Shown here one piece after another: positions 17,630 to 57,783 of a stretch of DNA of 64,000 bases. A model generated the notes under the pieces. It had not been told where the DNA came from and made no database searches. It saw nothing but the letters and a program-made list of their open reading frames with translations. Each line of letters begins with the position of its first letter. Position 1 is the stretch's first letter. Source of the stretch: a virus (taxonomy: Duplodnaviria > Caudoviricetes); IMG/VR virus record IMGVR_UViG_3300042691_031247; one strand, written 5' to 3'. Both the position numbers and the translations under genes were made by a program.

Positions 17630-18451
17630 CTAAAAAGTGCTTTGTGTGTATTGCTTGTCTAACATCGCTTGAATTTTTGCTGCGCGTTGGCTTACGGCGC
17701 CGGGCGTAATGTTTAATCGGCGAGCAATCTCTTGCGTGCTCGTTTTGCGCCGGCCGTTGCGCCCCAGCGTCATGTCAGCAACAAGCTTGTCGATCGGACT
17801 CAGATCTTCGTAGACAAACTTAAACCACGCGTCCGCCGCTCGCGTGCTGTTCGGAATTGTGCTCGCGACGTCGCCGCCGTAGCTTTCTTCGTCCATAACT
17901 TCGCGTGTTGTCATGCCTTCAGATACAGGCTGATTGAACGCACGAATCTTTTGAATACGGCGCGTAGACAACCCGGTGGCGTCCGCGACTTCATCGTCGG
18001 TCGGCTCGCGGCCAAGCTGGTCACGCAGTTCGTTTTCGCTCTCGTTGAGTCGCGTGTAATCTAACCCTACTTGTTCCGGGATAGCGATAATGTTTTGATT
18101 CTGGGCCGATACCCGCCGGAGACTCTGCAGCTGCGACAGAAGATGTGTGCGCACATTCCCGCGGTTGGGGTCGTACGTGTCGAGCGCTTTTAACGCCATA
18201 AGCTTGGCTCGCGACCGGATTGTCGGGCTGGCGGCTTGCCCGGCGTAACTCATCACCGCGGTGTCGATTACAGGCTGAAGTGTCTGCAGCAGCGCCGAGC
18301 TGGTCTCGGGGGTTTTGTGGGCGGCCCACTGCGGGTACAGACTGTCAAACTCCGGGCTGACGCCGGCTGGTTTTTTAGCTGAAAACGGTGGCGGGGTGTC
18401 GCCCAGTATGGACGGCATGCCTTGCTGCTTTTTGTTATTTATATCGGTCAT
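17630..18451 (-). CDS. Phage sigma70-family RNA polymerase sigma factor
   Basis: Region 2 (ALKALDTYDPNRGNVRTHLLSQL), region 3 (LRDQLGREPTDDEVADATGLS) and region 4 HTH (STQEIARRLNITPGAVSQ). The likely start at 18451 overlaps the hub gene stop (ATGA). Confidence 0.9.
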   Translation of the reverse strand: MTDINNKKQQGMPSILGDTPPPFSAKKPAGVSPEFDSLYPQWAAHKTPETSSALLQTLQPVIDTAVMSYAGQAASPTIRSRAKLMALKALDTYDPNRGNVRTHLLSQLQSLRRVSAQNQNIIAIPEQVGLDYTRLNESENELRDQLGREPTDDEVADATGLSTRRIQKIRAFNQPVSEGMTTREVMDEESYGGDVASTIPNSTRAADAWFKFVYEDLSPIDKLVADMTLGRNGRRKTSTQEIARRLNITPGAVSQRAAKIQAMLDKQYTQSTF

Positions 18452-20070
18452 TTCAGCGTATATCCCGACCATTTTTGGCCTTTGTACAGCGGCGCAGTTT
18501 CTTGCGTAATTTTATTGGTTCTGAGATCTTCTAACTCGGTGCGAATGTACGACAAATCAAGCGACGTGCCGGCGAGGGCGCGTTCGGCGTTAATCGCGTA
18601 AGACACCTTCGTGACTGCCGCAATTAAATGCCCGCCGCCCTTACCAACGTCGCCGTCAGGGAGTTTAATTTTAACGATACTGCCCGGCGCAATATCAAAA
18701 CGCAGTTTACCAGACAGTTCGCCGTATCTTTGGCTTAAAAACTCGGTGTGGTAAAAGTGTTTTGCAAAACGTGTGCATACCTCGTTGTACATGGCATCGG
18801 CGAGTTCGGCTGGCTTTTTCCAGCCGGCCGGTAACGACGATTCACCTGTCTGTGGCGCAAGGCAGTCGCCCGGCCGTTTGCCGCCCTCGCCGGTCGTCGG
18901 CCCGCACATGATCGGCCACGGCGACGTGTTCGCCAACCACGATGGTAAGTCTTTAAATAGCTTTAAACCTTGCTGCGGTTTTTGCGCCGTAGCAGCGTCG
19001 GGCCACTGACCGGACGGCGTCGAAAACTTATCGCTGCTCTGCATGTCACCGCCGAGATGCAGCATAGGATCCATTTGCGCCGGCCAGAACACCGTCACGT
19101 TCTCGATCAGCTGGTGCATGGTCGAGTTAAAGTTGGCGTAGCTATAGTCGTCCGCGTGGATAGTGAGTTTGTCGCTACCGCTAAATTTAAGCCCGCCAAA
19201 AAAAGGAATGACGTACGCTTTGTCGATACACGGCGACACGGCAAAGAAAAACTGCGACGCATAATCACCGACGAGCGTGCTCCAAAATGTTGTATACGCA
19301 AACGATTCAACCGCGTCTTTGGTGAGCGCCTGCCGGACAGACATCTCGGCATTCAAACCGACGCCACTAATATCTAAACTCAATTTTGCCGGACCACTAA
19401 AACTAGGCGCTTCGTCGGGCATGCGCGCGAGGGCTTTGAGCGCGGCGTCATTTGGATCGTTTGACGACGTCTTCCACCCGGCCATGGTTTTAAAAATTGG
19501 TTTAATAACGTCGCCCCACAAATTCTGACTGATATTTGACTCAGTGATAATTTTTTCGTTGGCGTCGATAATCGGGACAGGTGACCAAACGTTTCCGTCG
19601 CTCGTTTGCAGCGCTTCGAAAGCTGCGTTCTGCGCCATCAAAAACGGCGCGTTTGGCGCCCACTTGCCATTAAGCGCAGACGAGTTATTCAGGTCGTCGA
19701 GCCAGTGCACGACGTTGATGACGTAATTGGCGCTATTGTGCGAACGCTGATACCCGACGCTGACCAAAAAACCTTCAAATATCTTTATCTCGCCGCTTTC
19801 CATTTTGTCTGTCTTACCGGCTGACGGTGTAATGGTTAAAAACACTTCAACCGGCGCGCGGGGCTGCAGCGCCACTTTTGCCATATGAATAGTCGCCGGT
19901 GCTCCGCCGCGGGCGTTTTGACCAACGGCGACAGTGATACTCGCGGTCGGTATTGTGTTCAGCGGAAACGACGCCGAAATCGCAACAATCTCATTACTAA
20001 AATCAAACCCAGCTATCTTTGCGCGGAGTTTAAATTTTGTGTGTACGTAATTCGGGTTCAGCTCGGTCAT
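18448..20070 (-). CDS. Baseplate hub protein (T4 gp27 / P2 gpD-like)
   Basis: 540 aa, with IVAISASFPLNTIPTASITV, IFEGFLVSV and GELSGKLRFDIAPGSIVKI...VTKVSYAI. Located downstream of the tape measure. Confidence 0.78.
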   Translation of the reverse strand: MTELNPNYVHTKFKLRAKIAGFDFSNEIVAISASFPLNTIPTASITVAVGQNARGGAPATIHMAKVALQPRAPVEVFLTITPSAGKTDKMESGEIKIFEGFLVSVGYQRSHNSANYVINVVHWLDDLNNSSALNGKWAPNAPFLMAQNAAFEALQTSDGNVWSPVPIIDANEKIITESNISQNLWGDVIKPIFKTMAGWKTSSNDPNDAALKALARMPDEAPSFSGPAKLSLDISGVGLNAEMSVRQALTKDAVESFAYTTFWSTLVGDYASQFFFAVSPCIDKAYVIPFFGGLKFSGSDKLTIHADDYSYANFNSTMHQLIENVTVFWPAQMDPMLHLGGDMQSSDKFSTPSGQWPDAATAQKPQQGLKLFKDLPSWLANTSPWPIMCGPTTGEGGKRPGDCLAPQTGESSLPAGWKKPAELADAMYNEVCTRFAKHFYHTEFLSQRYGELSGKLRFDIAPGSIVKIKLPDGDVGKGGGHLIAAVTKVSYAINAERALAGTSLDLSYIRTELEDLRTNKITQETAPLYKGQKWSGYTLK

Positions 20071-38626: not shown

Positions 38627-39553
38627 TCACTTGAAGTCAACGCGAGCCAGACCGTTGGTGTGGCCGAACGAGCCACCCGAAGTCTGGTAAGCGAAGTACT
38701 CAAGCATGTAAGCCTCACGACGGATGTACATCGTGGTGGGCTCCAGCTCGTAGTTCTTGCCGATGAACTTCGGCGAGGCGAACATGAACATGGCGTCATC
38801 GGGGACAAGATCGCGCTTGATCGTAACGATCCAGCGGCAGTTGAGGAAGTTAGTCTCCGCCCAACCGTTCTTGATGATGTCCTGCGAGAAGTCGCCACCC
38901 ATCTCGTCACGGCCGAACTTGAGGAGTTCCTTGATCGTGATGTTATTCACGAGGCAGGTTTCAACCTCAAAGTGCGACGGCGTCCGGGGCATGACCTTCA
39001 GCGCGTCGACAAGGGTCTCACGCGTGATGCCGCCCGAGATCTCTTCGTACTGCACAGCGCCGCTGGCGACGTTGGCAACACCCGGAGTCGGGAGCACGGC
39101 GTTGAAGGCGGCAATAAACTTGCCGTCCTCTTCAGCCAGCATGTCCTTGATCATGTTGTCGCTGAGGACCTGACGGATGTCGATCACGTACGTACGCAGC
39201 TCGTCGACGTCCTTCACAGCGCGGGGCGACACGATCCGGTCAAACATGACGCGGTAGCGCGGGCCACGGATGTAGAAGTTAATCGGGAGCGTCGCAAACG
39301 GGAGCGACACAGCCGCCGGGGAATCGGGCTCCTTGTCCACCACCTTGACGGGCTTGTCAGTGTCAACCTGACGGTCAAGCTCGTCGTTGGTGATGGTCAG
39401 CGGCGGCATAATCCGCCGGTAGAACCCGTCTTCACGCATCTTGGTGCGCGTGAAGTCGTTAACCGCGTCGATGGCCTGCTTCTGCATGCCGGGGGTATCG
39501 AGCTGCTCAAAAAGCGTTTCGTTGAGCAGTTGGATCTCTTGCTGAGTGGGCAT
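38627..39553 (-). CDS. Major capsid protein (HK97 fold)
   Basis: 308 aa from MPTQQE behind GGAGG. Follows the protease-scaffold-cement genes, has the strongest codon bias, and its sequence pattern (FYRRIMPP; PRAVKDVDEL; IKDMLAEEDGKFI) fits large-phage capsid proteins. Confidence 0.85.
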   Translation of the reverse strand: MPTQQEIQLLNETLFEQLDTPGMQKQAIDAVNDFTRTKMREDGFYRRIMPPLTITNDELDRQVDTDKPVKVVDKEPDSPAAVSLPFATLPINFYIRGPRYRVMFDRIVSPRAVKDVDELRTYVIDIRQVLSDNMIKDMLAEEDGKFIAAFNAVLPTPGVANVASGAVQYEEISGGITRETLVDALKVMPRTPSHFEVETCLVNNITIKELLKFGRDEMGGDFSQDIIKNGWAETNFLNCRWIVTIKRDLVPDDAMFMFASPKFIGKNYELEPTTMYIRREAYMLEYFAYQTSGGSFGHTNGLARVDFK

Positions 39554-39592
39554 TTTGGGAACCTCCATGTTCCTTAATTAGTTAGGGATAGG

Positions 39593-40171
39593 TCAGTCGA
39601 TTGTGGCCGCAGTACCCGCCGGGAGGTACACGCACCAGAAGGAAAGCGTGTCCACACCGTTGTGGTTCTTCGACGCACCACTCGAAACAACACCGCAAAC
39701 CGGGTTTACGTACTGCACGGCGTTGGCCTTCGTCAGCACACCCTCAACGGCAGCGCCGCCAGTGGTGGGAGCAGTCAGAAGGTCACCCGGAGCATACGTC
39801 ACCGCGCTACCGCCGGACGTCTTCACGTACTCGGTGGTGGCGATTTCATAACCACCGGTCGCAACAAGACCCGACAGCTTGCCCGAGGGCGACACTGCTT
39901 GGTGCATGAAGTTACCGGCCGCTGTGGTACCCGGATTGCTGACGTCAGCATCCGTCGAACCGTTCAGCAAGAAAATCGCGACGCCCGTAGCGCTGACACC
40001 CGGAACGAACACGTCCTTGCCGCCCTCTTTCGAGAGATGCACGACGCGACCGCGCGGGACGTCATAAGCGACCGTGCTCAGCAGCTTGGCCGAGTAGTCG
40101 AGGGACGCCATATCGAACCAGCCCTTTTTGACGTCAAGGCCGTGTTCAAACATAAGATCAGGAGCAGGCAT
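39593..40171 (-). CDS. Capsid cement/decoration protein (beta-tulip-like)
   Basis: 192 aa, Gly-rich beta protein immediately upstream of the capsid gene. Contains GRVVHL...GYEIATTEY...YAPGDLLT. Confidence 0.72.
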   Translation of the reverse strand: MPAPDLMFEHGLDVKKGWFDMASLDYSAKLLSTVAYDVPRGRVVHLSKEGGKDVFVPGVSATGVAIFLLNGSTDADVSNPGTTAAGNFMHQAVSPSGKLSGLVATGGYEIATTEYVKTSGGSAVTYAPGDLLTAPTTGGAAVEGVLTKANAVQYVNPVCGVVSSGASKNHNGVDTLSFWCVYLPAGTAATID

Positions 40172-40226
40172 TGTTAGACCTCCGTGTCTTTCTCAATTGG
40201 AAACGTGTTCCGTAAAGGGGACGAAC

Positions 40227-40652
40227 TCAGGTAGTGGGCGGGTTAAGACCAAGGCCCGTAAACAGCTTTACGTCGGAAGCCTTGAGGCGACCATCGCGGG
40301 CACCCACATACCCGCTCGTCAGGCTGGCCGTCGGGTCGTAGCTGGCGGACTTTGTGGCCACCGGCGTACCAAGACGAGCCAGTTCAGCCGCGTTTTTGTG
40401 CGCGGCTAATTTGATAACAAGTTCCATCGCGCGCACCGGATCTTGAAGGGCGGCGGCAAGCGCTTCCTTCTGGTGGGCCTCGATCCGCTCGTTCTCCACG
40501 CACGCCTTGACGGCTTCGGGGATCAGGTGAGCCAGCTTTTCGCTGGTTTCAACCTGCGCCTTTTCGGCGGCGGCGGCTTTGGTCATCGCAGCATCGGAGT
40601 AACCGATGTAGTCGATGATCTTCTGTACGAGCGCGTTATTTTCGGTAGACAT
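40227..40652 (-). CDS. Helical head-assembly/scaffold-like protein
   Basis: 141 aa, with TKAAA and TKSAS motifs. Lies between scaffold and cement genes. Confidence 0.6.
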   Translation of the reverse strand: MSTENNALVQKIIDYIGYSDAAMTKAAAAEKAQVETSEKLAHLIPEAVKACVENERIEAHQKEALAAALQDPVRAMELVIKLAAHKNAAELARLGTPVATKSASYDPTASLTSGYVGARDGRLKASDVKLFTGLGLNPPTT

Positions 40653-40668
40653 TAAAACCTCCGTGTGA

Positions 40669-42012
40669 TCAACGATTCACGAGTTCGAGAACGTGCTGCT
40701 TCATCATGTCCCGCAGCTGGCGCGAACGCTTTGTGCGAGCTTCTTTGACTTGAAACCGACCAGCACGCTTAAAGTTTACAACAGCGCGACCGATGGCGTC
40801 TAAATCTTTAGCAGCAGCCATCTTCGGTTCTTCCATCGGCGGCATACCCGCGTCAGGCGCAGCGCCAGCTTCGGGCGGCATACCGCCTTCTGCGCCAGCA
40901 CCACCGGCCCCGGACAGAGCTTGCAGCAACGCTTCCGGCGGAATGCCGAGTTCTTCAAGCGCCATAGCCAGCTCTTGAACAGCCTCGTCTTCCGACGGCT
41001 CGCCGCCGGCAGCTTCAGGAGCCGGGCCACCCTCAGCGCCCATCATGGCTTCAAGACCAGCGGGTGCGCCGCCAGCAGCAGCGTCATCAGCCGGGGCGTC
41101 GCTCATACCAGAAGCAGCGTCTTCCGGCGCGGAGTGATCCTCGCCTTCAGCCGCCTCTTCGGTCGGATCGGCGGCCGCGGCCTTGGAGTTTACAAAACCG
41201 ATAAACAGGTCGGCCATTTCGTCGGCTTCGCGGATCGTGTTAGCGCACACTTCGCGAACGGAAGCTTCGGCAGCAGCCTTGTCCATACCGAGATGCGCGG
41301 CAAGCTCGTAACCCGCTTTGAACGCGGCAGCTTTGTCGCTGCGAAGCGCGGCAAGATCAGAACCTTCAATCTTGCCATCGTTGTCGGTGTCGAGTTTGTG
41401 CTGGTCGCCTTTTAGCTCGCCGGTCGACTCGCTTTTTTCTTCGGACTTCTCTTCAGTCTTTTTCTTTAAAAAAGCCGGCATCTCGGCCGCCTTCTCGTTG
41501 GTCAGCTTACTGGCGCCAAAGTTGATAAGGTTGGCAAGAATGTCGTTACCAAGTGTGCCGGCACGATCGCGAGCTTCCTTGAACGTAACCGAGCTGTACT
41601 TCTCGCCGTCGTTAGCCTTGACCGGCGACGAAGTGCCCGGGTCATCCTTATCGCCCTTGAAATCTTTCTCGTTGGACGGATCTTCGCCAGTGGCCTTGGC
41701 CGAGACGCCGATGTTCGTTTGAACTTCGTCTTGGCGACCTTCTTGCGACATCTCCGGTGTGTTGTCTACAGCAAGAGCACCCTGCTGCTTCTTGACGTCA
41801 GCTTCGTACTCGCTGGCGCGCGCACCAGTGCTGGCGTTTTGCACGCCGTTGTCAGCGCTGGTCGTCGGATGCGATGAGGCACCCTGATAGCCACCCGGAT
41901 CAGCGGGCACGGGACCGGCCGACTTTTCAGCCGCAGTCTTAACCGGGCTCTGCGCAATCTCAGCGGCGAGAGCGTTAAGTTGATCGAACAGTGAACGTTG
42001 CATCCGTGCCAT
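40669..42012 (-). CDS. Scaffolding-like protein (acidic, low complexity, many K-x-A motifs)
   Basis: 447 aa directly after the protease, with VKTAAEKSAG, EKAAE, DKAAA (twice), SKAAA and PKMAAA. Confidence 0.68.
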   Translation of the reverse strand: MARMQRSLFDQLNALAAEIAQSPVKTAAEKSAGPVPADPGGYQGASSHPTTSADNGVQNASTGARASEYEADVKKQQGALAVDNTPEMSQEGRQDEVQTNIGVSAKATGEDPSNEKDFKGDKDDPGTSSPVKANDGEKYSSVTFKEARDRAGTLGNDILANLINFGASKLTNEKAAEMPAFLKKKTEEKSEEKSESTGELKGDQHKLDTDNDGKIEGSDLAALRSDKAAAFKAGYELAAHLGMDKAAAEASVREVCANTIREADEMADLFIGFVNSKAAAADPTEEAAEGEDHSAPEDAASGMSDAPADDAAAGGAPAGLEAMMGAEGGPAPEAAGGEPSEDEAVQELAMALEELGIPPEALLQALSGAGGAGAEGGMPPEAGAAPDAGMPPMEEPKMAAAKDLDAIGRAVVNFKRAGRFQVKEARTKRSRQLRDMMKQHVLELVNR

Positions 42013-42055
42013 GACTTTCTCCTTTGGGGTCTAACCGTTACCGATTAGCTTCCGT

Positions 42056-43513
42056 TCATGTGACATAATTTTGCATTACACAGTGGTTTGCTGTCAACCA
42101 ATTGTTTCCATATTTCTCGCAGATGGCGGCGTAAGCAGCGATCTTATACAACGCGTAATGTTGCGCAAGAGCTGTTTCTGCTTTTCCACTCGCTTGCTTG
42201 TCGGACGGAAACTCAACTGCCCGGGCGTTACGAAGCGCGGCTAAGTAAGCACGCTTCTCAACACTGACGGGTAATACGCTATGTGTGTGTGCTACCTTTT
42301 CAGCCCACACGCGCACGTTTTGCGGCGCCGCGTCAGCTGGAAAGTATACGTTATTCTCAAGCAACGTGACGACATCTGCGTCGTTCGCTAACTTTGAAAA
42401 CACGTTAGGCAGCGCATACGCAACTGCACTAACAAGTGTGGCGTTAGCTGACTTAACTGTCAACGCTAAAAAATCTCGCAGCGGCAAGATTACTCCAGCG
42501 TCGGCTAGTCCGCGTAACACCTCAGACATTTTAACAGAAGGAGCGTTATTTGCATCAATAGCCGGTTGTACTTCGCCGGCGCTGGCAAGTGCTGTCTGCG
42601 CCCAGTTACCACCCGCGCCTGCATCCTTCTCCGCCTGCGCAAGCTGTGTTAACGCCTCTAGCTGCAGCTGAACACGGGCGGCAGGTGTGCGCCCTAAGTC
42701 GAACCCAAGCGGCGCGGTAATACCCAGCTGTTCGGCTAGTTCGGCGCCGGAAACACAGCTATTTGACGCGGCTTTCTGCAGCTGGCCGGATACGTAAGCA
42801 ATGCGGTCTGCCGGGCGAAACACGTGGCTGATATCAAAAAACGTCGGGTTGGGGTTGTCGGCGTGGAGTACGTGGCCGTCTTCCAGTACCCGCCCCATAT
42901 TGTGCTTTAACCCGCCCGCCTTGCAGTGGCCGCCGTTTTCTACAGAGTCGCAGTACTCGGCGCGGGTCTTGGCCGTGTTACCGCAGGACGAGCACTTGTC
43001 GAACGGGATCTTACATGCCATCGACACGGCGATCTCTTTGTCGTTGGCCAGCTTTTCCAGCTCTTTGTCTGCAATCAGGCCGCCGTTCCGGTCAGCCGCC
43101 TCTTTCGAGCCGTTTAGCGCCACGACCAGCTCGATACGTTTCATGGGCTCGTGGTAGGCGCTGGCCTTTACGATGCCGAAACTTTTAGCGGGGTTCTTGT
43201 TGGCGTGGTCGCGATAGAAGCGGGCAAACTTCTCGAACGTCTGATGGTAGTTCCGACAGCAGTCGCGAGTAAAGCCGTCGCCGTTACGGTTCGGGCCGTA
43301 ATCTTCTGTGGCGCCGATCGCGATCATGTGAACCGGCACTTCGTCTTTGGCAAACTTGATATTTTCAAGCTTGTGTGCAAACTCGGCACCGGCGCGCTTT
43401 ACAAGTTCCTGCTTGTCTACGCCGATGATCCCGCGGCTAGATACTTTGATAAGCGCAGCGACTGGCTCACTAAAGTCTTGAGCGTGCGGCTGGATGACCT
43501 TAATCATGCTCAT
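42056..43513 (-). CDS. Prohead maturation protease (HK97/assemblin-type His-Ser) with a Zn-ribbon insert and C-terminal extension
   Basis: Contains GPNRNGDGF, YRDHANK (His), VSMAC (Ser), CSSC..YC..HC and FFDISHVFRPADRIA. Confidence 0.88.
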   Translation of the reverse strand: MSMIKVIQPHAQDFSEPVAALIKVSSRGIIGVDKQELVKRAGAEFAHKLENIKFAKDEVPVHMIAIGATEDYGPNRNGDGFTRDCCRNYHQTFEKFARFYRDHANKNPAKSFGIVKASAYHEPMKRIELVVALNGSKEAADRNGGLIADKELEKLANDKEIAVSMACKIPFDKCSSCGNTAKTRAEYCDSVENGGHCKAGGLKHNMGRVLEDGHVLHADNPNPTFFDISHVFRPADRIAYVSGQLQKAASNSCVSGAELAEQLGITAPLGFDLGRTPAARVQLQLEALTQLAQAEKDAGAGGNWAQTALASAGEVQPAIDANNAPSVKMSEVLRGLADAGVILPLRDFLALTVKSANATLVSAVAYALPNVFSKLANDADVVTLLENNVYFPADAAPQNVRVWAEKVAHTHSVLPVSVEKRAYLAALRNARAVEFPSDKQASGKAETALAQHYALYKIAAYAAICEKYGNNWLTANHCVMQNYVT

Positions 43514-49661: not shown

Positions 49662-51542
49662 TCACGGCTTCCACCCGCTTGTTGTGCCTGTTACGCCGAA
49701 CTGCTCGCCTTGGGCTAGAGCGGGCACATAACTGCTGCCCGCGGTATCGCTACTTAGGCCGCGTTGCACGCTATTCATAAGCCCTTTTTCTTGATACGAG
49801 CCCAGCATGCGGGTCATCCAGTCGGGGTCATTTGAGATATTCGCCATACCTCGCACCATTTCGGGCTGGAACGGCGGTGGTTCTTTGTGGGCTTGAATTG
49901 TCTTCACGCCGTATTTATTCAAATTGGTCAGCACGTTTTTACCGATCTTTGTGCCAATTGAATAGTGCAATACCGGTTTTTCAAGGTAATGCCCGGTTAA
50001 TGTGTTAGGCGCGGCTGATACGCTACCTTCACGCGGCGTCCAATTACGTTCAATTGCTGAGTAGGGCACTACATCGTCTGGCGCATAATCGCCGTACTCG
50101 TCATTCAAACGCACGTGATTAACAAGACCGCGCGCAAGTAGCTCGATGTTCCGTCGGTGGGCTGTAATGCCGCTATTGCCCATGACCTGCCGCATCGCCT
50201 GCACAAAGTAACGGCGGCCTTCTCCTACCCCTTTGTGCCGGACAATTTCAGCTGGATTTGGCATACCGTCGGATATGACGTCGCCGGCTTCAAGCTCGTC
50301 GCCTTTTTTAACAGCAAGCTTTCGCTCGGTCGGAACGTAGTGATCCTGCCCGTTAATCTGCACGTAATAACCGCCCTGCGGCGCTGGCCGAACTTCTTGT
50401 ACTCGCCCGTCAAGCTGCGAATGCGCTGCGCCGTCTGGATATTTTTTCGGGACCTGTACCAGCGCGTTAAGCGCTTTAAAGCCAGAAATCGCGCCCGCGC
50501 CACCAACGCCGCCCGAGTGCTTCGAGCTGATCTGGCTTTGCGTAACCGGCTCGGACAGCGCCTGTGCGGCGGTAATGCCTACGTAATCGCCGATGGGCGG
50601 TAGGCGCCCCTTCTCCCGGTAACCAACGTCTTTGGCGTAAACGCCGCCATCGCCCGGGCCGCCGACAATCGGACTGCGGACTAAGATATCTTTAGCGCCG
50701 CTTTCTTTCAGGTCTCGCAAGATCTTGGGCGTCAGAATTGTATTGCGTTTATACGGCCCGACAGCGCGAGCGAGTAACGCACCTTCGTTGTCTGGATCGT
50801 CTACGTCGGTGGGGTAGCCGCGCTCTTCCGCGGTCATGCGCCGCTCTTCATCGTCGTTATCATCGTCATCTGCCGTAACGAGCAGTCGGTGCGTCATCTG
50901 CGCAAGCTGTTTACCGTAGAACCCCGCGTCGGCGGTGGCCGTCTTCAGATCGATAACGCCCTTGCGGGTACCGAACGCGCCGGCAAAGTATTCAACCGGG
51001 CGCAAACCTTGGCTGTAGCCGCGCAACACCGGAATTGGAATCGGGTCGCCGCGGTGGTCGAGATACTGCATGTCAGCGCCAAGAATCGAGTTTAACTGAA
51101 ACTTGTTACCGACGCCGGCGCCAGCAATTTGATGCACCAGCGGATTATCTTGACCTTCCGCTTCTTTGTACACTTTTTCGAGAAGTTCTTGCTGCGCTGC
51201 TTGCGCAAGTTCGAGGAGCTTGATGTTGCGCTGTTTTTCGTCAAGCCGGCGATCGGCAAAGATGTCGCGCATCTGATTTTGCACACGCAGTTGCACGTGA
51301 CGTGCCGCAAGCGTCGGGCGAATGTCTTTAAGCCCGAACGATAAGCCGTTTGTCGTATACCCGGCGTCGCGGCCGATGTCGTGAAGCCGCTTCATGACTT
51401 CGCGGTATTTTTCTGGATGCGTTTTGGCTAGCTCAGTCGCGACACCGGACATTGTCTTTTTCGTCAACACACGATCGTAGTCGCGCATCTCGGGCGGCAA
51501 CGCTTCGTTAATCAGGAGTTGGCCGAGCGTTGTCTTCAGCAT
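49662..51542 (-). CDS. rpoC: Phage RNA polymerase beta' subunit, C-terminal half (funnel, bridge helix, trigger loop, jaw)
   Basis: Contains TTLGQLLINEALP, GLRPVEYFAGAFGTRKGVID..TADAGFYGKQL (bridge helix), GITAAQALSEPVTQ......HSGG (trigger loop) and HRRNIELLAR. Confidence 0.93.
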   Translation of the reverse strand: MLKTTLGQLLINEALPPEMRDYDRVLTKKTMSGVATELAKTHPEKYREVMKRLHDIGRDAGYTTNGLSFGLKDIRPTLAARHVQLRVQNQMRDIFADRRLDEKQRNIKLLELAQAAQQELLEKVYKEAEGQDNPLVHQIAGAGVGNKFQLNSILGADMQYLDHRGDPIPIPVLRGYSQGLRPVEYFAGAFGTRKGVIDLKTATADAGFYGKQLAQMTHRLLVTADDDDNDDEERRMTAEERGYPTDVDDPDNEGALLARAVGPYKRNTILTPKILRDLKESGAKDILVRSPIVGGPGDGGVYAKDVGYREKGRLPPIGDYVGITAAQALSEPVTQSQISSKHSGGVGGAGAISGFKALNALVQVPKKYPDGAAHSQLDGRVQEVRPAPQGGYYVQINGQDHYVPTERKLAVKKGDELEAGDVISDGMPNPAEIVRHKGVGEGRRYFVQAMRQVMGNSGITAHRRNIELLARGLVNHVRLNDEYGDYAPDDVVPYSAIERNWTPREGSVSAAPNTLTGHYLEKPVLHYSIGTKIGKNVLTNLNKYGVKTIQAHKEPPPFQPEMVRGMANISNDPDWMTRMLGSYQEKGLMNSVQRGLSSDTAGSSYVPALAQGEQFGVTGTTSGWKP

Positions 51543-51543
51543 G

Positions 51544-51783
51544 TCACGGCGTCCAGACGATGTTTTGCAACGATTTCGGCTTGAAGTCGGTTACAACAAC
51601 TGTTTTATTGATACCCAGCGCGCGTAACATTGGATGAAAATCTTTTTCACCCACGGTTGAATAAACAACCGCCTCGTCGACTTGAATGGCGACGAATAGC
51701 GGGTTACCTAGATCGTCCTCGACAACGACGCTGTGCGATTTCTGCTCAGCGGGTTGAAGATTGTGCTGCGTTTTAACCAGCAT
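51544..51783 (-). CDS. Small hypothetical protein between the RNAP genes
   Basis: 79 aa, beta-rich, Cys-free. Coupled to both neighbours. Confidence 0.6.
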   Translation of the reverse strand: MLVKTQHNLQPAEQKSHSVVVEDDLGNPLFVAIQVDEAVVYSTVGEKDFHPMLRALGINKTVVVTDFKPKSLQNIVWTP

Positions 51784-52501
51784 TGTCCGCAATACTCCGA
51801 ATCATGGCGGCGATAGCATTTGCTTTGATCTGCATTGCCGTGGGCGCATTCGGATTCGAGTAGCTGGGGCCGAACGGCCGGCCGATTGACGACGCAGACT
51901 TTTCAGCGCGGTCCCACCACGCCGCCTTAGACGGATCACCCTCTGGCGGTGCGGCGTTCGGCGGCATCGGGCCGCCCGGGGGCATCGGACCACCCGGCGG
52001 TTGCATACCGGCCTGCGCGTTGGGATCTTGCGCGGGAGGCGCCATCGGGCCGCCGGGCAGCGCGGTTTCAGCCGGCGGGGCGCCGGTTGTTCCGGGCGGG
52101 AGCACAAGTGACTCTGGCGGAACTTGCACACCCATCGCGTTCATAATGGCCGTGAGCTGCTGCTGCATGTTGTACAAGCGATAGTCGAGCATCTGCATCA
52201 TCTGCTCGGGCTTTAGTTTTTGCTGCGTGCCTGCAGGGGCTGCGCCCGGAGCGGCGGGTGCGGCGGGCGCTGCGGGAGGAGCAGCGGGCGGCGCCATACC
52301 CATAGCCGCAGGATCCACTGGCGGTGCAGCTGCTGCAGCAACAGCAGACGGATCGGCCGGCGGTACAGCCCCCATGGCGGCTGGGTCAACCGGCGGAGCA
52401 CCACCAGCAGCAGCGGGATCCACCGCCGCTCCGGGCACTAATGCGGATTTTTCAAAGCGCGCCTTCGCCAGCGCAATGAGTTCGGGGTTTACCGTGAACA
52501 T
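51773..52501 (-). CDS. Pro/Ala-rich low-complexity protein with a central helical segment
   Basis: 242 aa behind CATGGAGG. PAAP/PPGGPM tracts flank MMQMLDYRLYNMQQQLTAIMNAMG. Contains EKSA twice. Confidence 0.65.
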   Translation of the reverse strand: MFTVNPELIALAKARFEKSALVPGAAVDPAAAGGAPPVDPAAMGAVPPADPSAVAAAAAPPVDPAAMGMAPPAAPPAAPAAPAAPGAAPAGTQQKLKPEQMMQMLDYRLYNMQQQLTAIMNAMGVQVPPESLVLPPGTTGAPPAETALPGGPMAPPAQDPNAQAGMQPPGGPMPPGGPMPPNAAPPEGDPSKAAWWDRAEKSASSIGRPFGPSYSNPNAPTAMQIKANAIAAMIRSIADNAG

Positions 52502-52521
52502 ACAGCCTCCATGTTTAACGA

Positions 52522-55500
52522 TTACGTATTATCTTCCACAATATGAACCGGGGTGTCCACCTCTATTTCGCCGCGCCGGTACGCCTGCATGGCATCCTGC
52601 TTGCTGCGAAACACGCGTGGTTTAGCTTTTTTACTGATTCGACTGGACGCTAAGTATAACCCAGTCTGGTAGTCTTTGTTTGGGACGTAGTGCGCCTTGA
52701 ACGTCGAAGCTGCAAACAGGTTCTTACTCGGCAGCATCTTTTCCACGGCTTCTTTAGCGGCGTCTTCGGTACTTGGGACGTGATACTGCATCGCGTCGCC
52801 GTCGAAGTCAGCGCCGAACCCCTTCGTGATTACGGGGTTTACTTCCATGACTTTGTTCTTAGTTAACTTGGGGTAAAACGCCATCATGCCGTAACGGTGA
52901 AGCACGGGCGCGCGGTTAATAACAATAGGCCGCGACGACATCTGCCGATCTAGCTCGGCGCCAGCTTCTTTCGTCTTGTCTTCCACGGCCTGCATCGCCT
53001 GCATGCGCGGAAGACCCCTGCGAACAAGACCGCGCACAACGAACGGCTTGTAAATATCCCACGCTTTCTCTTCCGGCAACGCAACCTCGTCCATGTCGAG
53101 ATCGGGATTCGGTGTAATGACCGCGCGCCCCACGAGGTCGACCGTGGAGCTAAGAAGCTTACGCTGCACGGTGCCGTACTTTGGCGAGTTACCGAACACG
53201 TGCCGCAGAAAACCTTTCACATTGCGCTCAACGTTTTTCGGCTGCTGCGGCTCACCCAGTCCAGTGACAGCCTTCATCGAGTCATACACGCTCAGGCGTT
53301 CGTCGCCGTAATCGGCCAGCGCGCCAGACGCCTCTTTCAGTGTGTCGTTCGCATCAAGCAGTTCTTTGTACAGATAGTTTGCGTCAGCGACGAGCGGCAG
53401 CTTCTTACTGCCCATCGTGCTCACGGGGCGGAAGAGTGGCGGCAAGACGGGGACTTTACTAATCATCCAGTCTTTGGGGTGCACGCCGGTTGTTTCCGCG
53501 CTCTTTAAGAACCCCAACCGGCGCACGGCAGCGTCGCGAAGCGTCTTGCGCCCGGATTTAATATCTAAACGCGCCTGCTCGATAGCCTTTGGTAGGTTAA
53601 TTCGTTCAAGCGCGGCCTTGATCGCCGTGGGCCCTGTTTTGTCGCCCAGCTGTTCGCGACCAGCCAGCACGCCGCGGAACTGCTTTTCCGTCATCCCCAG
53701 TACGCGTCGAATCGGGTCTTCCATGACCGGATTCGGCAGCGGCTCGTGCAGCGTGATCTTGCTCCACCTGTTACCGCCGTGGCCGCCCGTCAAAGCCTCA
53801 TCAAATAAACCGCCGGCAATAGGCTTGAGGCGCCCCTTCCAGTCAACGGTCTCAGAGCTTTTCAATTCACGCGGACCGGCCAGCTCGTCGATGTCTTTGT
53901 CGGTCATGGCCATGAGGTTCGACCGCGTGCCTTTGCGCACAACGTTAATACCAGACGCCCTAAGCTGCCCGACGAACTTCTCGTATACGTGTGGCACCTT
54001 GGGTAGCGGCGGAGTGTAGCCGGCCATGAACTGCGACCAGTATTCGGGATTTGCTTGGCCGCGCACCATCTTGGCGTCGCGAATAACCTTACCGGCGCCG
54101 TGCGAAAGCAGCGCGCCAAGATCCAGCATGCCGACGCGCTTGGCGCCTTCGCTGCCGCCCTTCGCCGGAGTGCCTTCGGCTGTATATGCACCCATCGACC
54201 GGCCCTGCGCTTTTGATTCGCTGGTATGGTGCAGCTTCATGAAAAACCGGCTGCCGGTCAGCACACCGCCGATTTTCCGCCCGGTTTCTGCGTCGATGAC
54301 GTCTTCGGTATCGGACAGCCCGTGCTTTGCCAGTTCTTTCTGCGCAAACTCAATGAGGTCGTTTTTGTTATCAAAGTCCTTGAGCTTGTACGGCGAGCCG
54401 GTCTTTGCTGCGACCTTGCCTAGTGCGGCTTCAATCACCTGCGCCGGGTTAATACGGCTGATCAGACCCAGCGGCGAGACGAGCACTTCAAAAGGATTGC
54501 CGTCGCGGTCTTTGGGCATCTGGTCGTCAGGTACGATCTCTGCGACGACGCCCTTGTCGCCAAAGCGCCCGGTGAGCTTGTCGCCAACGTCCATGGGCGC
54601 TTGGTTTTTAACGACAACGCTCACACCCTTCTTGGTGTGCATAACGTCGGTCACGATACCCGGCGCATGATGCTCCCACGTGATTGTGTCGTTTGTAAAG
54701 TTACCAGCACGCCCACGATGCACTTTGCCGTACACCGTGTCTTTCTTTTTGGCCACGAGCACGAGCGGGTCACCAAACTTGACCTCAGTACCTTTTTTAA
54801 TCGCGCCGTCGTCGTCAAAGTTGTCAAGATACTTTTTGTCGTACTCAGTCGGGAACAAACTCACGAACGCCTTCTTGCCAACGTGAGTGTTGTCGTCCCA
54901 CTCGGCTTCGTGCTGATACATGTGCTCAGACGTTAGCCGCTTGGATGCGGATTCAGAGATAACTACCGCATCTTCGTAGTTCTTGCCGCGGAACGGCAGA
55001 TAGGCTGTACGCAGATTCAAGCCGAGCGCTGCGCTGCCGTTTTGATCTGTAAAGTTCGACCGGGCGAGCAGTTGTCCGGGCTCTACCGTGTCGCCGGGCT
55101 TCACAATCGGCGTCTGGTGTAAGAACGTCTTACGGTTGTACGGCATTTCGTTATACAAATCGATCGTCTTCTTATTACCATCTTTGTCGCGCAGTACGAT
55201 GCCGTCAGGTGTGACATCGACGACTTGCGCGCGTTCGGTAGCCCGGGTGGCGCCAAGCTTTTCGCCCATCTCGTCTTCGTGCGACATGCTCTCGTCATCG
55301 GCCTTGGCGGATTGCAGCAACGGCGCCTCGGCGTTTACTAGCGGGAGCGCTTGCGTAAACATACGGCTACCCATGATCACGCGGTGGCCTTTGATCATGG
55401 ACTTAATCGGCACCATGTTGGATAACGTCGAAAACGTTGAATCCATGTTCGGCAGGCTGAACTGCGCCTCTTTACGCGGAACATACTTGAGCTTGCCGTT

Positions 55501-56925
55501 GACGAGCGCTGCCACCACGGGAAGTCCGTTATCTTCTTCGCCGGGAAACACGAGCGGCGTATCGGCCAGCTCTTGCGGCGTCTTGTACACCTTATCGCCG
55601 GTTTTCATATCAACAACCGGCGTATACACCTTGCCGTCGGAGCCCTTCATAGCGCCGCGGGCAAAGCGCATGTCAACACCCACCTTGCCGGATTCTGGCG
55701 TGCGAAGATAGTCGATAAACCCAAGGTGGCTGGGCTGCACAGAACGTGACTCGGCAGGCACGGCGTCCAGCGAGCCAATGCCGCCTTCGCCCATACGGGT
55801 CACACGCGTCTGGTGGTCAAAGATCTCCGCAGGATTAATTTCTTCTAAACTCGACCCCAGACCGCTGCCAATAAGCGCAGCTGAGATTGCCTTGTCGAAT
55901 ACGCCCGACGGAATGTGATCAATTGACTTCTTCGCCGTAGCTTTCCAGAGCAGCTTGTTAAGCGATTGGCGGTCTTTGGTAAAACGCTCGGCAATGAGGT
56001 CCTCCGGGCCGACGACGGACTGATACACCATGTTGTCTCGGTCGTCGCTCTCGGCCTCGCGGCGATTCACTGCGATTAATTTCTTAGTGATCGCCAGAAT
56101 CGTCTCCGGCGTCATGTTCTTGTATTCAGAACCCAGTGTGCGCCGGGTGACTTCCGGGTCGAGTTCGGTCTTGGCAAACTCGGCCGCGATCGCCTGCGCT
56201 TTGGCAATAGCGTCTGCGCCGGCAACTGGTTTGTTTACAAGGCGGGCGTAGATCTTGTCCATCGTGCCAGCATCGCCCTTCTCCATGTTGACGGCGGTGA
56301 TCTCATTGCCCCACGCTTTGCGGATGTCCTGATCTGACACGCCCATGGACTTGAGCAGCGGCATGAGCGGGATCTGCGCCTGACCAATGCTGATTTTGAA
56401 CACGCCGGTTTTGGGGTCGAGGAAGTACCGGTGCGAACGGCCCTTACCCGGTAGCGTGTTTACGTGCGCCTCAATCTCGCCGTTGTCTTTCTCGCGGGTA
56501 AACACGCCGGGGCGCAACCGCATCTGGTGCGCAAGGGTGTACTCGACGCCGCCGTTAACGAACGTGCCCGAGTCGGTGAGATACGGCACGTGGGCGATCG
56601 TGGCGCGGCGCTGGCCGACAGGCTGCCCGGTTTTGTTATCTGTAAGCGTCCACGTACCTTGCAGCCGGCGGGCAAGTGTCCCTCTGGAAAGGACAGCTTT
56701 CTTCTGATCTGACCTTGTGAAGCGCTCAGGTCCCGAATACCCGACGTCTTGCAGCTGCAACGTATACAGGTCATTCTGCAGCGGCTTGAGCCCCTGCGCG
56801 CTCGTAAGCGCCTGATTAAAAATGTTATCCCGCATCACGCCAACGTCGCCGAACGTGCGCATCGTGGGCGCGACCGGCGCGGGTGTCATCGGCGATTTTA
56901 AGTCGGGCAGTTCAGGGGTCGGCAT
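52522..56925 (-). CDS. rpoB/rpoC: Phage RNA polymerase: fused beta subunit plus beta' N-terminal half, containing the catalytic DFDGD
   Basis: Beta motifs RTPESGKVG, MGSRMFTQA, KNYEDA, GDKLTGRFGDKGVV and GAKRVGMLD. Beta' motifs follow: ETVDWKGRLKPIAGGLF, VLPPLFRP, LLSSTVDLVGRAVI, NRAPVLHR and GADFDGD (52795-52815). Confidence 0.95.
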   Translation of the reverse strand: MPTPELPDLKSPMTPAPVAPTMRTFGDVGVMRDNIFNQALTSAQGLKPLQNDLYTLQLQDVGYSGPERFTRSDQKKAVLSRGTLARRLQGTWTLTDNKTGQPVGQRRATIAHVPYLTDSGTFVNGGVEYTLAHQMRLRPGVFTREKDNGEIEAHVNTLPGKGRSHRYFLDPKTGVFKISIGQAQIPLMPLLKSMGVSDQDIRKAWGNEITAVNMEKGDAGTMDKIYARLVNKPVAGADAIAKAQAIAAEFAKTELDPEVTRRTLGSEYKNMTPETILAITKKLIAVNRREAESDDRDNMVYQSVVGPEDLIAERFTKDRQSLNKLLWKATAKKSIDHIPSGVFDKAISAALIGSGLGSSLEEINPAEIFDHQTRVTRMGEGGIGSLDAVPAESRSVQPSHLGFIDYLRTPESGKVGVDMRFARGAMKGSDGKVYTPVVDMKTGDKVYKTPQELADTPLVFPGEEDNGLPVVAALVNGKLKYVPRKEAQFSLPNMDSTFSTLSNMVPIKSMIKGHRVIMGSRMFTQALPLVNAEAPLLQSAKADDESMSHEDEMGEKLGATRATERAQVVDVTPDGIVLRDKDGNKKTIDLYNEMPYNRKTFLHQTPIVKPGDTVEPGQLLARSNFTDQNGSAALGLNLRTAYLPFRGKNYEDAVVISESASKRLTSEHMYQHEAEWDDNTHVGKKAFVSLFPTEYDKKYLDNFDDDGAIKKGTEVKFGDPLVLVAKKKDTVYGKVHRGRAGNFTNDTITWEHHAPGIVTDVMHTKKGVSVVVKNQAPMDVGDKLTGRFGDKGVVAEIVPDDQMPKDRDGNPFEVLVSPLGLISRINPAQVIEAALGKVAAKTGSPYKLKDFDNKNDLIEFAQKELAKHGLSDTEDVIDAETGRKIGGVLTGSRFFMKLHHTSESKAQGRSMGAYTAEGTPAKGGSEGAKRVGMLDLGALLSHGAGKVIRDAKMVRGQANPEYWSQFMAGYTPPLPKVPHVYEKFVGQLRASGINVVRKGTRSNLMAMTDKDIDELAGPRELKSSETVDWKGRLKPIAGGLFDEALTGGHGGNRWSKITLHEPLPNPVMEDPIRRVLGMTEKQFRGVLAGREQLGDKTGPTAIKAALERINLPKAIEQARLDIKSGRKTLRDAAVRRLGFLKSAETTGVHPKDWMISKVPVLPPLFRPVSTMGSKKLPLVADANYLYKELLDANDTLKEASGALADYGDERLSVYDSMKAVTGLGEPQQPKNVERNVKGFLRHVFGNSPKYGTVQRKLLSSTVDLVGRAVITPNPDLDMDEVALPEEKAWDIYKPFVVRGLVRRGLPRMQAMQAVEDKTKEAGAELDRQMSSRPIVINRAPVLHRYGMMAFYPKLTKNKVMEVNPVITKGFGADFDGDAMQYHVPSTEDAAKEAVEKMLPSKNLFAASTFKAHYVPNKDYQTGLYLASSRISKKAKPRVFRSKQDAMQAYRRGEIEVDTPVHIVEDNT

Positions 56926-56928
56926 GAA

Positions 56929-57783
56929 TCACCCCGCCTGCGATTGCTCAACTTGCTGCTTCAGCGCGATGATCTCGTCGGGATCGACGTACGTCGGCAA
57001 AATGCCGGAGATGCGCGCTTTCGACTTCGCGGCTTCTTCAACCGCTTTGGCGCGGGAACGCTCGCGCGCACGATCGTACATTAACTTGGCAGCCAGACCG
57101 CCGAGTCCCAAACCACCAGCAACGTATGTGCCGCCGAGCGCCGCCGGCACCCGTTTCGCTGTGTCGTACGCGCTGGTGAGCCAGTCGAGCAGCGCCTTCT
57201 TCTCCGCAGCTGCTTTTTCGCTCGCGGTGTCGTATGCGCTGTCGAGCGCTTTGGCCGGGCCGCCGGTCAGCGCGTCGTAGTACTCTTTTTCAGCAGCCGC
57301 GATTTGCTCCTGCTGATCGCGCTTCTTTTTGCGCTTGTGCAGCGTCTCGATCAGTTTGTAACCGCCGAGTCCGCCCAAAGCCGCGGCGCCAAACGTCGCG
57401 CCCGTACCAAATGACGAACGAATCACGTTCGGGTCGTACGAGTTCTGGCTTTTGCTTGTGGCGGGCGTGAACGGCCGTAAAAAACTGAGCACTGAATCTG
57501 GCAGCATTTTGCCAACGCCTTCAGTGACGTTGTCGTATATGCCAGCGGCTTTTGTCTCGGTAATCTTGGGCGTTTCTTCTTCGTCTTCTTCGTACTTCGG
57601 CTTGTTTAGCGCCTGAGAAAGCCCGCGGGCCAGATAATACAAACTAGCAGCAGTAGCACCAGCGCCAAGCCCGCCAACACCAGTACGGATAATACGATTG
57701 CCCCAGAAACGCTGGTAATCTTGGGCGGTAGGTTGGCCAACAGGGGCTGCGGGTGGGATGGCATTGTTTGCTAGTTTTTCCAT
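56929..57783 (-). CDS. Gly-zipper putative ejection/internal protein
   Basis: 284 aa, Cys-free. Three hydrophobic Gly-rich segments each followed by basic or coiled-coil stretches. Contains MEKLA, TKAAG and EKAAA. Confidence 0.55.
   Translation of the reverse strand: MEKLANNAIPPAAPVGQPTAQDYQRFWGNRIIRTGVGGLGAGATAASLYYLARGLSQALNKPKYEEDEEETPKITETKAAGIYDNVTEGVGKMLPDSVLSFLRPFTPATSKSQNSYDPNVIRSSFGTGATFGAAALGGLGGYKLIETLHKRKKKRDQQEQIAAAEKEYYDALTGGPAKALDSAYDTASEKAAAEKKALLDWLTSAYDTAKRVPAALGGTYVAGGLGLGGLAAKLMYDRARERSRAKAVEEAAKSKARISGILPTYVDPDEIIALKQQVEQSQAG

Follow-up and report, generated by a model that had tools for sequence, protein, structure and literature searches.

The only RNA polymerase (RNAP) detected in an uncultured freshwater phage has lost both of the four-cysteine zinc sites of bacterial β′ and contains no cysteine in the 2093 residues of its two chains, a fusion of β to the N-terminal half of β′ (β::β′N, 1467 aa) and a separate C-terminal subunit (β′C, 626 aa). 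Here, we analyse 64,000 nucleotides (the window) of the 198-kb genome of this phage, which is rated 97% complete. By analogy with phage N4, we consider it probable that this is the virion-packaged, ejected RNAP of an Arash-like myovirus, held under selection against cysteine.

Both RNAP genes are located among head genes on the minus strand. β::β′N (52522..56925) matches the Pfam families Rpb2_6 (E 2e-50) and Rpb1_2 (E 1e-24) and is 32% identical to Arash gp206 at 99% coverage, and β′C (49662..51542; Pfam Rpb1_5, E 7e-24; PDB β′ matches, E 5e-35) is the orthologue of Arash gp216. The catalytic barrels of β and β′ are present, with the β Lys motif preserved along with all three Asp of the catalytic Mg loop GADFDGD (52795..52815, minus strand); several close relatives show NADFDGD in this loop. 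Only two-barrel domains were detected in the RNAP genes, the single-subunit T7-type polymerase domain of the N4 gp50 family being absent, and searches of the genome found neither a second RNAP nor, for the alpha subunit gene, a match to PF01000. A sigma factor is encoded in the tail gene block (17630..18472, minus strand; phrog_351, E 4e-12; tblastn E 5e-16 to the Arash virion sigma gp10). The head gene block (38627..43513) forms a same-strand run with the RNAP genes and includes the major capsid protein (38627-39568; orthologue of Arash gp226, E 2e-27) and a putative protease-like head protein of 485 aa (42056-43513; orthologue of Arash gp222, E 2e-30), both on the minus strand. A Pro/Ala-rich 242-aa protein without a Pfam match, encoded between the two RNAP genes (51773..52501, minus strand), is a candidate internal virion protein, and a Cys-free 284-aa protein encoded immediately upstream of the RNAP (56929..57783, minus strand) is a candidate for co-ejection. 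The sequencing runs listed as carrying the phage DNA are mostly freshwater metagenomes, with no RNA datasets among them; as homologues in genome bins bear unrelated organism labels, we claim no host.

Site I, in the β′ N-terminal zinc-binding domain, is reduced to a remnant at 53764-53814 (minus strand; residues 1038-1054 of β::β′N), which aligns with E. coli β′ 54-106 in an alignment that included S. aureus β′. E. coli residues 58-101, 44 residues that include C70, C72, C85 and C88, are replaced by a 12-residue turn linking the flanks. The Cys4 site is missing from 98/98 family segments, that of cultured Arash among them, and the replacement turn, 11-17 residues long where the pattern is readable, contains Cys in none of the 98 relatives. 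Judged from these alignments, loss of site I is ancestral to the entire family. To our knowledge, all cellular RNAPs have site I and site II is limited to bacteria and plastids, and the description of both sites as near-universal in cellular RNAPs, given in an earlier note on this DNA, thus suits the first site only. That note had reported both sites as lost, and alignments with E. coli β′ and with relatives agree; the two segments are on the minus strand at the positions it gave, each in a gene of its own.

Site II is considered to serve the assembly and folding of bacterial RNAP. Its remnant in β′C, the RSP...RE segment (50613..50678, minus strand), has a pLDDT of 90-95 in the fragment model described below. 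The E. coli ligands C814, C888, C895 and C898 correspond to D227, at the start of a variable loop, G294, Y302 and D305, respectively, and among 150 representatives G294 is present in 122, Y302 in 138 and D305 in all. The variable loop (50820..50873, minus strand) lies at the C814 position, contains an acidic run (50844-50873) and ends in Arg241, which is preserved in 125/138 relatives. The earlier note had this loop take the place of a metal ligand, a role ruled out by its variable length (7-32 residues among relatives), its mean acidity of about 31% and the presence of Asp in the C814 column of only 47 of 138 relatives; as far as the sequences tell, it is a tolerated surface insertion and not a conserved ligand. 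Asp226, Asp249 and Asp251 are strongly conserved, and no conserved His occurs in the domain besides the ancestral His218. The Asp preceding the loop and the DxDNxG motif (50781..50801, minus strand) occur in relatives with all four Cys, and the motif, being older than the loss, is ruled out as a calcium or zinc site that arose after it. In relatives at 36-46% identity, four Cys occupy precisely the ligand columns, with identical flanks, which fixes the register and makes the misalignment that the note had named as a possible refutation very unlikely.

As the full-length β′C model (mean pLDDT 65) resolved site II poorly, a fragment model built with a deeper alignment was used in its place. The fragment reaches a pLDDT of 91.9, with a TM score of 0.79 to Thermus β′ and, against M. 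tuberculosis β′, a Z score of 21.1 and an rmsd of 2.6 Å over 245 residues. Structure prediction, suggested earlier as a check, thus gives a β′-like domain, and the fold is predicted to be retained at site II; AlphaFold does not model metals and may simply reproduce a known fold. Most likely, the metal has been replaced by ordinary packing in the zinc-less clade, where Gly294 would give space, Tyr302 would occupy the old metal cavity and Asp305 might cap a short helix or pair with Arg241.

Across the family, site II is a matter of four Cys or none: 99 of 184 segments keep Cys4 and 83 have zero. The enzymes of Arash, phiKZ and PBS1 also keep the site, and it survives in nearly all other phage RNAPs checked. 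At least four independent losses of it have occurred, with different replacement residues; a single origin is rejected by an AU test (p 4e-67; tree with the site II columns masked, LG+G4 model). Along one lineage the decay is graded, passing from four Cys through two and one to none, and two other loss lineages have Asp in the C888 column, so that the Asp column differs between lineages. In the Arash group the four ligands are present in 120/120, and non-ligand Cys number 7 in 72,993 residues. Loss of site II is, on this comparison, later than that of site I and repeated, and the two do not form the one event earlier supposed. No report of zinc or Cys loss in the Arash-like RNAP family emerged from our literature search.

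The absence of Cys from both chains, which the earlier reading missed, has a chance probability of 2e-12 at the genome's 1.28% and of 2e-5 at the E. coli non-ligand frequency, and close β′C homologues have 0 Cys in 71,338 residues. Inteins and inserts within RNAP genes contain 1.9% Cys, compared with 0.09% in the core and 0.04% in the C-terminal extensions; since the inteins keep Cys, the bias is a property of the mature protein rather than of the DNA. The depletion extends to sigma (0 Cys in the protein itself and in 7,140 residues of 29 homologues, against 0.89% in neighbours), to the SNF2 helicase (0 in 710 residues), to the 242-aa protein (6 in 8,059 residues, 41 homologues) and to the 284-aa protein (1 in 6,946 residues, 29 homologues). 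Of the Arash sigmas, the virion sigma has 0 Cys and the other 3. By contrast, Cys makes up 2.15% of the 485-aa head protein across 38 homologues, and six other phage proteins, including the portal orthologue, retain paired CxxC motifs. Some of the Cys-free proteins, such as one of 846 aa encoded outside the window, may not be ejected, and Lys-x-Ala processing motifs in the β′C extensions show no enrichment over shuffles.

In the mechanism that we favour, the RNAP would be synthesized late together with the head proteins and taken up by the capsid with its own sigma and probably also the SNF2 helicase; it would then thread into the host partly unfolded, refold and transcribe early genes. Selection against Cys in ejected proteins would have worked stepwise, the surface ribbon of site I being deleted and non-ligand Cys purged in a first step, a state that Arash and most family members show, and the final four Cys of site II being purged independently in several lineages in a second. 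In purified Arash particles, gp206 was the top protein and gp216, the sigma gp10 and the helicase gp217 were present too; ligase, primase and ribonucleotide reductase were also in the preparation, and the authors allow for co-purification (PMC10585845). N4-like ejection proteins are marked by Cys suppression (PMC11445570). With the Arash orthologues in virions and this N4-like purge, the earlier suggestion of a zinc-independent, refoldable enzyme probably stands. Ejection does not require loss of site II, as the virion RNAPs of phiKZ, PBS1, SPFM16 and EL-like phages keep it together with some Cys. The Cys-rich YerA41 RNAP has also been found in particles.

Among the alternatives, we consider relaxed constraint the strongest, though unlikely: an RNAP streamlined to a single sigma and free of host regulators would no longer need its zinc domains, which would have decayed, packaging being incidental. 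Host factors such as SspA dock on site I (PMC7515715), the non-virion RNAP of AR9 is a published precedent for an enzyme without site I (PMC7618050), no alpha gene was found, and the graded decay described above fits. Such relaxation covers site I but not the purge of every other Cys from β, β′, sigma and helicase, a purge that spares the inteins. A shade less likely still is a different metal site, with Mg, Ca, Mn or Zn bound by Asp305 together with Asp226, Asp249, Asp251, Glu253 or the acidic loop; the invariance of Asp305, the conservation of the other three Asp and the Asp at C888 in two other lineages speak for it. However, Asp226 and DxDNxG are older than the loss, the loop lacks conservation, Gly and Tyr have taken over two of the four ligand columns, the sole conserved His is ancestral and the Asp column shifts among lineages.

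Cys-free ribosomal protein paralogues are a known parallel for zinc sparing, and the 4-or-0 pattern recalls such paralogue pairs, as the freshwater origin of most of the DNA would suit a phage of zinc-poor water. We nevertheless hold this to be improbable, since the paired CxxC motifs in six other proteins, which rule out sparing across the genome, and the Cys-rich 485-aa head protein stand against it, and the Cys-free sigma is left unexplained. Least of all do we credit an artefact of misassembly, misalignment or gene decay: contigs from three other runs span both sites and are identical there, there are hundreds of intact homologues, the catalytic Asp triad and β Lys motif of this enzyme are preserved, and the register is fixed by the four-Cys relatives.

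Taken further, packaging and ejection could imply a bacterial-type RNAP free of structural metal that is ejected unfolded with its sigma and assembles without alpha, site II having been removed at least four times by the same selection against Cys, a proposition on which we are evenly divided. If true, nature has provided a whole set of solutions to folding the site II domain without zinc. The matched four-Cys and no-Cys versions in the family, with cultured Arash (Salmonella), make the role of β′ zinc testable, as well as the reason why ejected proteins avoid Cys. The N4 rule would extend to a multisubunit enzyme of unrelated origin, with enough force to delete metal sites, and single-Cys labelling would gain a handy scaffold in a two-chain RNAP that is Cys-free and brings its own sigma.

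Compared with bacterial β′ (C70/72/85/88 and C814/888/895/898), the phage enzyme shares the predicted site II domain fold, the adjoining helices and the catalytic motifs, but both sites are gone, the chain boundaries are shifted and no alpha gene was found. The closest known systems are Arash (OQ632216; PMC10585845) and the Vibrio phages D69, D148 and D181, which have the same β::β′N and β′C layout, the same site I deletion and almost no non-ligand Cys. Arash further has orthologous sigma, helicase, capsid, portal and sheath and is the sister group in the β′C tree (support 95/90, in a tree that included the long phiKZ and PBS1 branches). Arash and D69 differ in keeping all four site II Cys, at 23-32% identity; the RNAP passages of the Arash paper are silent on zinc or Cys. 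mReC phages (PMC7481178) and the cultured RHph_TM30, YerA41, Carin-5, IME392 and RP13 also encode bacterial-like β and β′, but these cultured phages keep both zinc sites, and in TM30, YerA41 and Carin-5 the RNAP genes sit among replication genes. The mReC markers, Gp23-type capsid (PF07068) and PF03237 terminase, were unmatched in our phage; the mReC paper itself detected them in only part of its contigs, and zinc, Cys, virion and sigma go unmentioned there (PMC7481178). The RNAPs of phiKZ and AR9/PBS1 (PMC7618050, PMC7824862) are likewise two-barrel, with split β′ and no alpha, but come as two sets, lack a sigma70-type factor and are not Cys-free, site II Cys4 being present in 4/4 β′C subunits checked; zinc is not discussed in the paper on the AR9 structure or in the review of jumbo phage RNAPs. 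Finally, the N4-like (Schitoviridae) virion RNAPs, gp50 and DEV gp71, are Cys-suppressed and packaged, and are presumed to leave the virion unfolded and refold afterwards (PMC11445570, PMC13434306), but they have a non-homologous single-subunit T7-type fold, with no β′ zinc sites to lose.

The RNA polymerase (RNAP) of the window phage, whose virus record has a completeness rating of 97% and spans 198,101 bases, with the window at 14719-78718, comprises a β::β′N fusion (1467 aa; 52522-56925) and a separate β′C chain (626 aa; 49662-51542), both encoded among tail and head genes that lie on the minus strand and include, by tblastn, orthologues of the sheath, the capsid protein and one head protein of the cultured Salmonella phage Arash. 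A sigma factor is encoded at 17630-18472, while no second sigma factor, second β′C gene or alpha gene was found in the window phage genome. Among cultured phages, full-length matches are confined to Arash and the Vibrio phages D69, D148 and D181, and freshwater metagenomes make up the majority of datasets containing the window DNA. Many genome assemblies of unrelated bacteria and archaea include contigs of this phage family in their bins, and rpoB/rpoC trees could be distorted as a result.

The earlier note had claimed that both conserved zinc sites of β′ are deleted or replaced, and both regions are identical in contigs from three runs. At site I, the N-terminal Cys4 ribbon, the deletion is borne out by alignment, with 12 residues replacing E. 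coli β′ 58-101 (44 aa, four ligands) between readily aligned flanks. Cysteine is absent here from all 98 distinct family segments read, Arash and D69 included, and the gap measures 11-17 residues wherever the pattern is readable, again including these two phages; the loss is therefore real and ancestral to the whole family. The ribbon is retained in TM30, YerA41, Carin-5, IME392, RP13 and the phiKZ non-virion enzyme, and its loss is not new in kind, since the AR9 non-virion RNAP provides a precedent (PMC7618050).

At site II, the C-terminal Cys4 site of β′, the ligand columns of the window β′C are occupied by D227, G294, Y302 and D305, and no cysteine occurs in these columns among 150 representatives at 46-57% identity. 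Asp305 is invariant (150/150), the Tyr302 column holds Tyr in 138 and Phe in 7, and Gly294 is conserved in 122. Nearer relatives, at 36-46% identity, carry four cysteines in identical columns, which fixes the alignment register and upholds the claimed replacement. The same relatives already possess the DxDNxG motif and an Arg-Glu pair, so these acidic motifs did not originate as zinc replacements, and the loop following ancestral Asp226 is variable (7-32 residues, 31% acidic), the window version being among the most acidic; the proposal of an acidic loop in place of a metal ligand is thus not supported.

Structure prediction, like alignment with homologues, had been suggested as a check. A template-free AlphaFold2 model of β′C 209-480, built from 115 Cys-less homologues, is confident (mean pLDDT 91.9, pTM 0.87; 90-95 in the former ligand segment, 79 in the acidic loop) and matches the β′ of both Thermus (TM 0.79) and M. 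tuberculosis (Z 21.1, rmsd 2.6 Å, 245 residues), for which reason the domain is predicted to keep its fold despite the cysteine loss, the model being silent on metal. Conservation, including that of Arg241 (120/132), suggests that Tyr302 fills the old metal cavity and that Asp305 pairs with Arg241.

Site II has been lost repeatedly. Four cysteines are present in 99 of 184 family segments, none in 83, two in one and one in another, counts that are skewed by the searches used and are not natural frequencies. On a 77-sequence β′C tree with the site columns masked and the Arash group as root, five changes of state are counted (four of them required by the starred branches; 4-5 on bootstrap trees), and these changes are losses because bacteria and the outgroup have four cysteines. 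A single origin is rejected, as the log-likelihood falls by 541 units when all losses are forced into one group (AU p 4e-67). One of the losses is that of the window's clade (support 99/95); in a second lineage the decay is graded, from four cysteines through two and one to none, and the remaining lineages carry Asp in the C888 column, with Pro or small residues elsewhere. Outside the family, the β′ of Vibrio phage 1.031.O (contig L086:8752-12543), read by motif, has site I and shows no second CxxC pair, and may be a further loss.

These losses belong to a wider depletion of cysteine. Both window RNAP chains have none, against a genome average of 1.28%, and the clade has 8 in 74,234 aligned residues of the fusion and 1 in 31,553 of β′C; across 29 genomes the 7,140 residues of sigma include none, versus 0.89% in its neighbours. 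Inteins and inserts of the same RNAP genes carry 486 in 25,267 residues and C-terminal extensions only 26 in 58,527, so the bias tracks residues that stay in the mature protein. Since β′C of the Arash group is already down to exactly the four ligands (120/120, with 7 other cysteines in 72,993 residues), site II loss is the final step of a purge that was by then nearly complete. General zinc sparing is rejected, because other window-phage proteins keep CxxC pairs. A 1628-aa protein in a tape-measure-like position of the tail block (21420-26306; no PHROG match) also has no cysteine, and a Family A DNA polymerase that carries a uracil-DNA glycosylase-like domain at its N terminus (contig L080:4012-7176; genome 160008-163175) has a normal content (16 in 1055).

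In N4-like phages, cysteine suppression marks ejection proteins and is thought to prevent disulphides in transit (PMC11445570; PMC3915230), the N4 virion RNAP being thought unfolded or loosely folded during tail passage (PMC13434306). Arash particles yield spectra for gp206 (β::β′N; 3516, the most), gp216 (β′C; 1210), sigma gp10 (467) and helicase gp217 (1148), all orthologues of Cys-free window-phage proteins, although many replication enzymes are also present in that preparation and the zinc-bearing RNAP of YerA41 is likewise detected in particles. The RNAP-sigma set would be packaged in the virion and then ejected, refolding without a zinc requirement; candidate pressures against cysteine would be periplasmic oxidation, oxidation in the free virion or a need to unfold. 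Site II is intact in the virion and non-virion enzymes of both phiKZ and PBS1, and in SPFM16, an EL-like phage, TM30, YerA41, Carin-5, IME392, RP13, Arash and D69; because phiKZ-type virion RNAPs retain it, losing it is not a requirement but is allowed or advantageous.

The gp217 orthologue, an SNF2-type helicase (710 aa, no cysteine; contig L077:16418-18547, genome 94414-96546), is a candidate RNAP partner that may be co-ejected; the zinc domain absent from the window RNAP has been discussed in connection with RapA, an SNF2 ATPase of the host. Arash has two sigma factors (L068:2561-3598 and L082:11892-12596): gp10, particle-listed and without cysteine, and gp196, unlisted and with three. In the window's catalytic loop, GADFDGD (52795-52815), Gly takes the first position, where Asn would be expected; relatives vary between Asn, Ala, Met and Leu ahead of the Asp triad, and Arash has Tyr for Phe. 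The trigger-loop segment (50508-50552) keeps its His, has altered bacterial Met, Arg and Phe, and is strongly conserved in the clade. In many relatives, inteins with homing endonucleases recur at two insertion sites of β′C, one in the bridge helix (around residues 200-210) and one beside the trigger-loop His (around residue 339). Many also bear an extension C-terminal to β′C that is rich in Ala, Pro and Gly, almost devoid of cysteine and 300-1100 residues long (proteins P0125-P0272; contigs L042, L048, L062 and L067 from about 11860), which the window β′C lacks. In relatives L105, L107 and L108 the large chain appears as a 1000-residue ORF plus a separate upstream part, so β is split differently there.

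No description of zinc or cysteine loss in the Arash-type RNAP family was found in a literature search that covered few subscription journals. The enzyme resembles the ejected RNAP of N4 in its mode of working, although the two are unrelated, and the phage does not show the markers, a capsid and a terminase, that are reported for mReC, a phage group with a bacterial-like RNAP (Weinheimer and Aylward 2020). The window RNAP is one of the Arash-type enzymes, a variant gone one step further.
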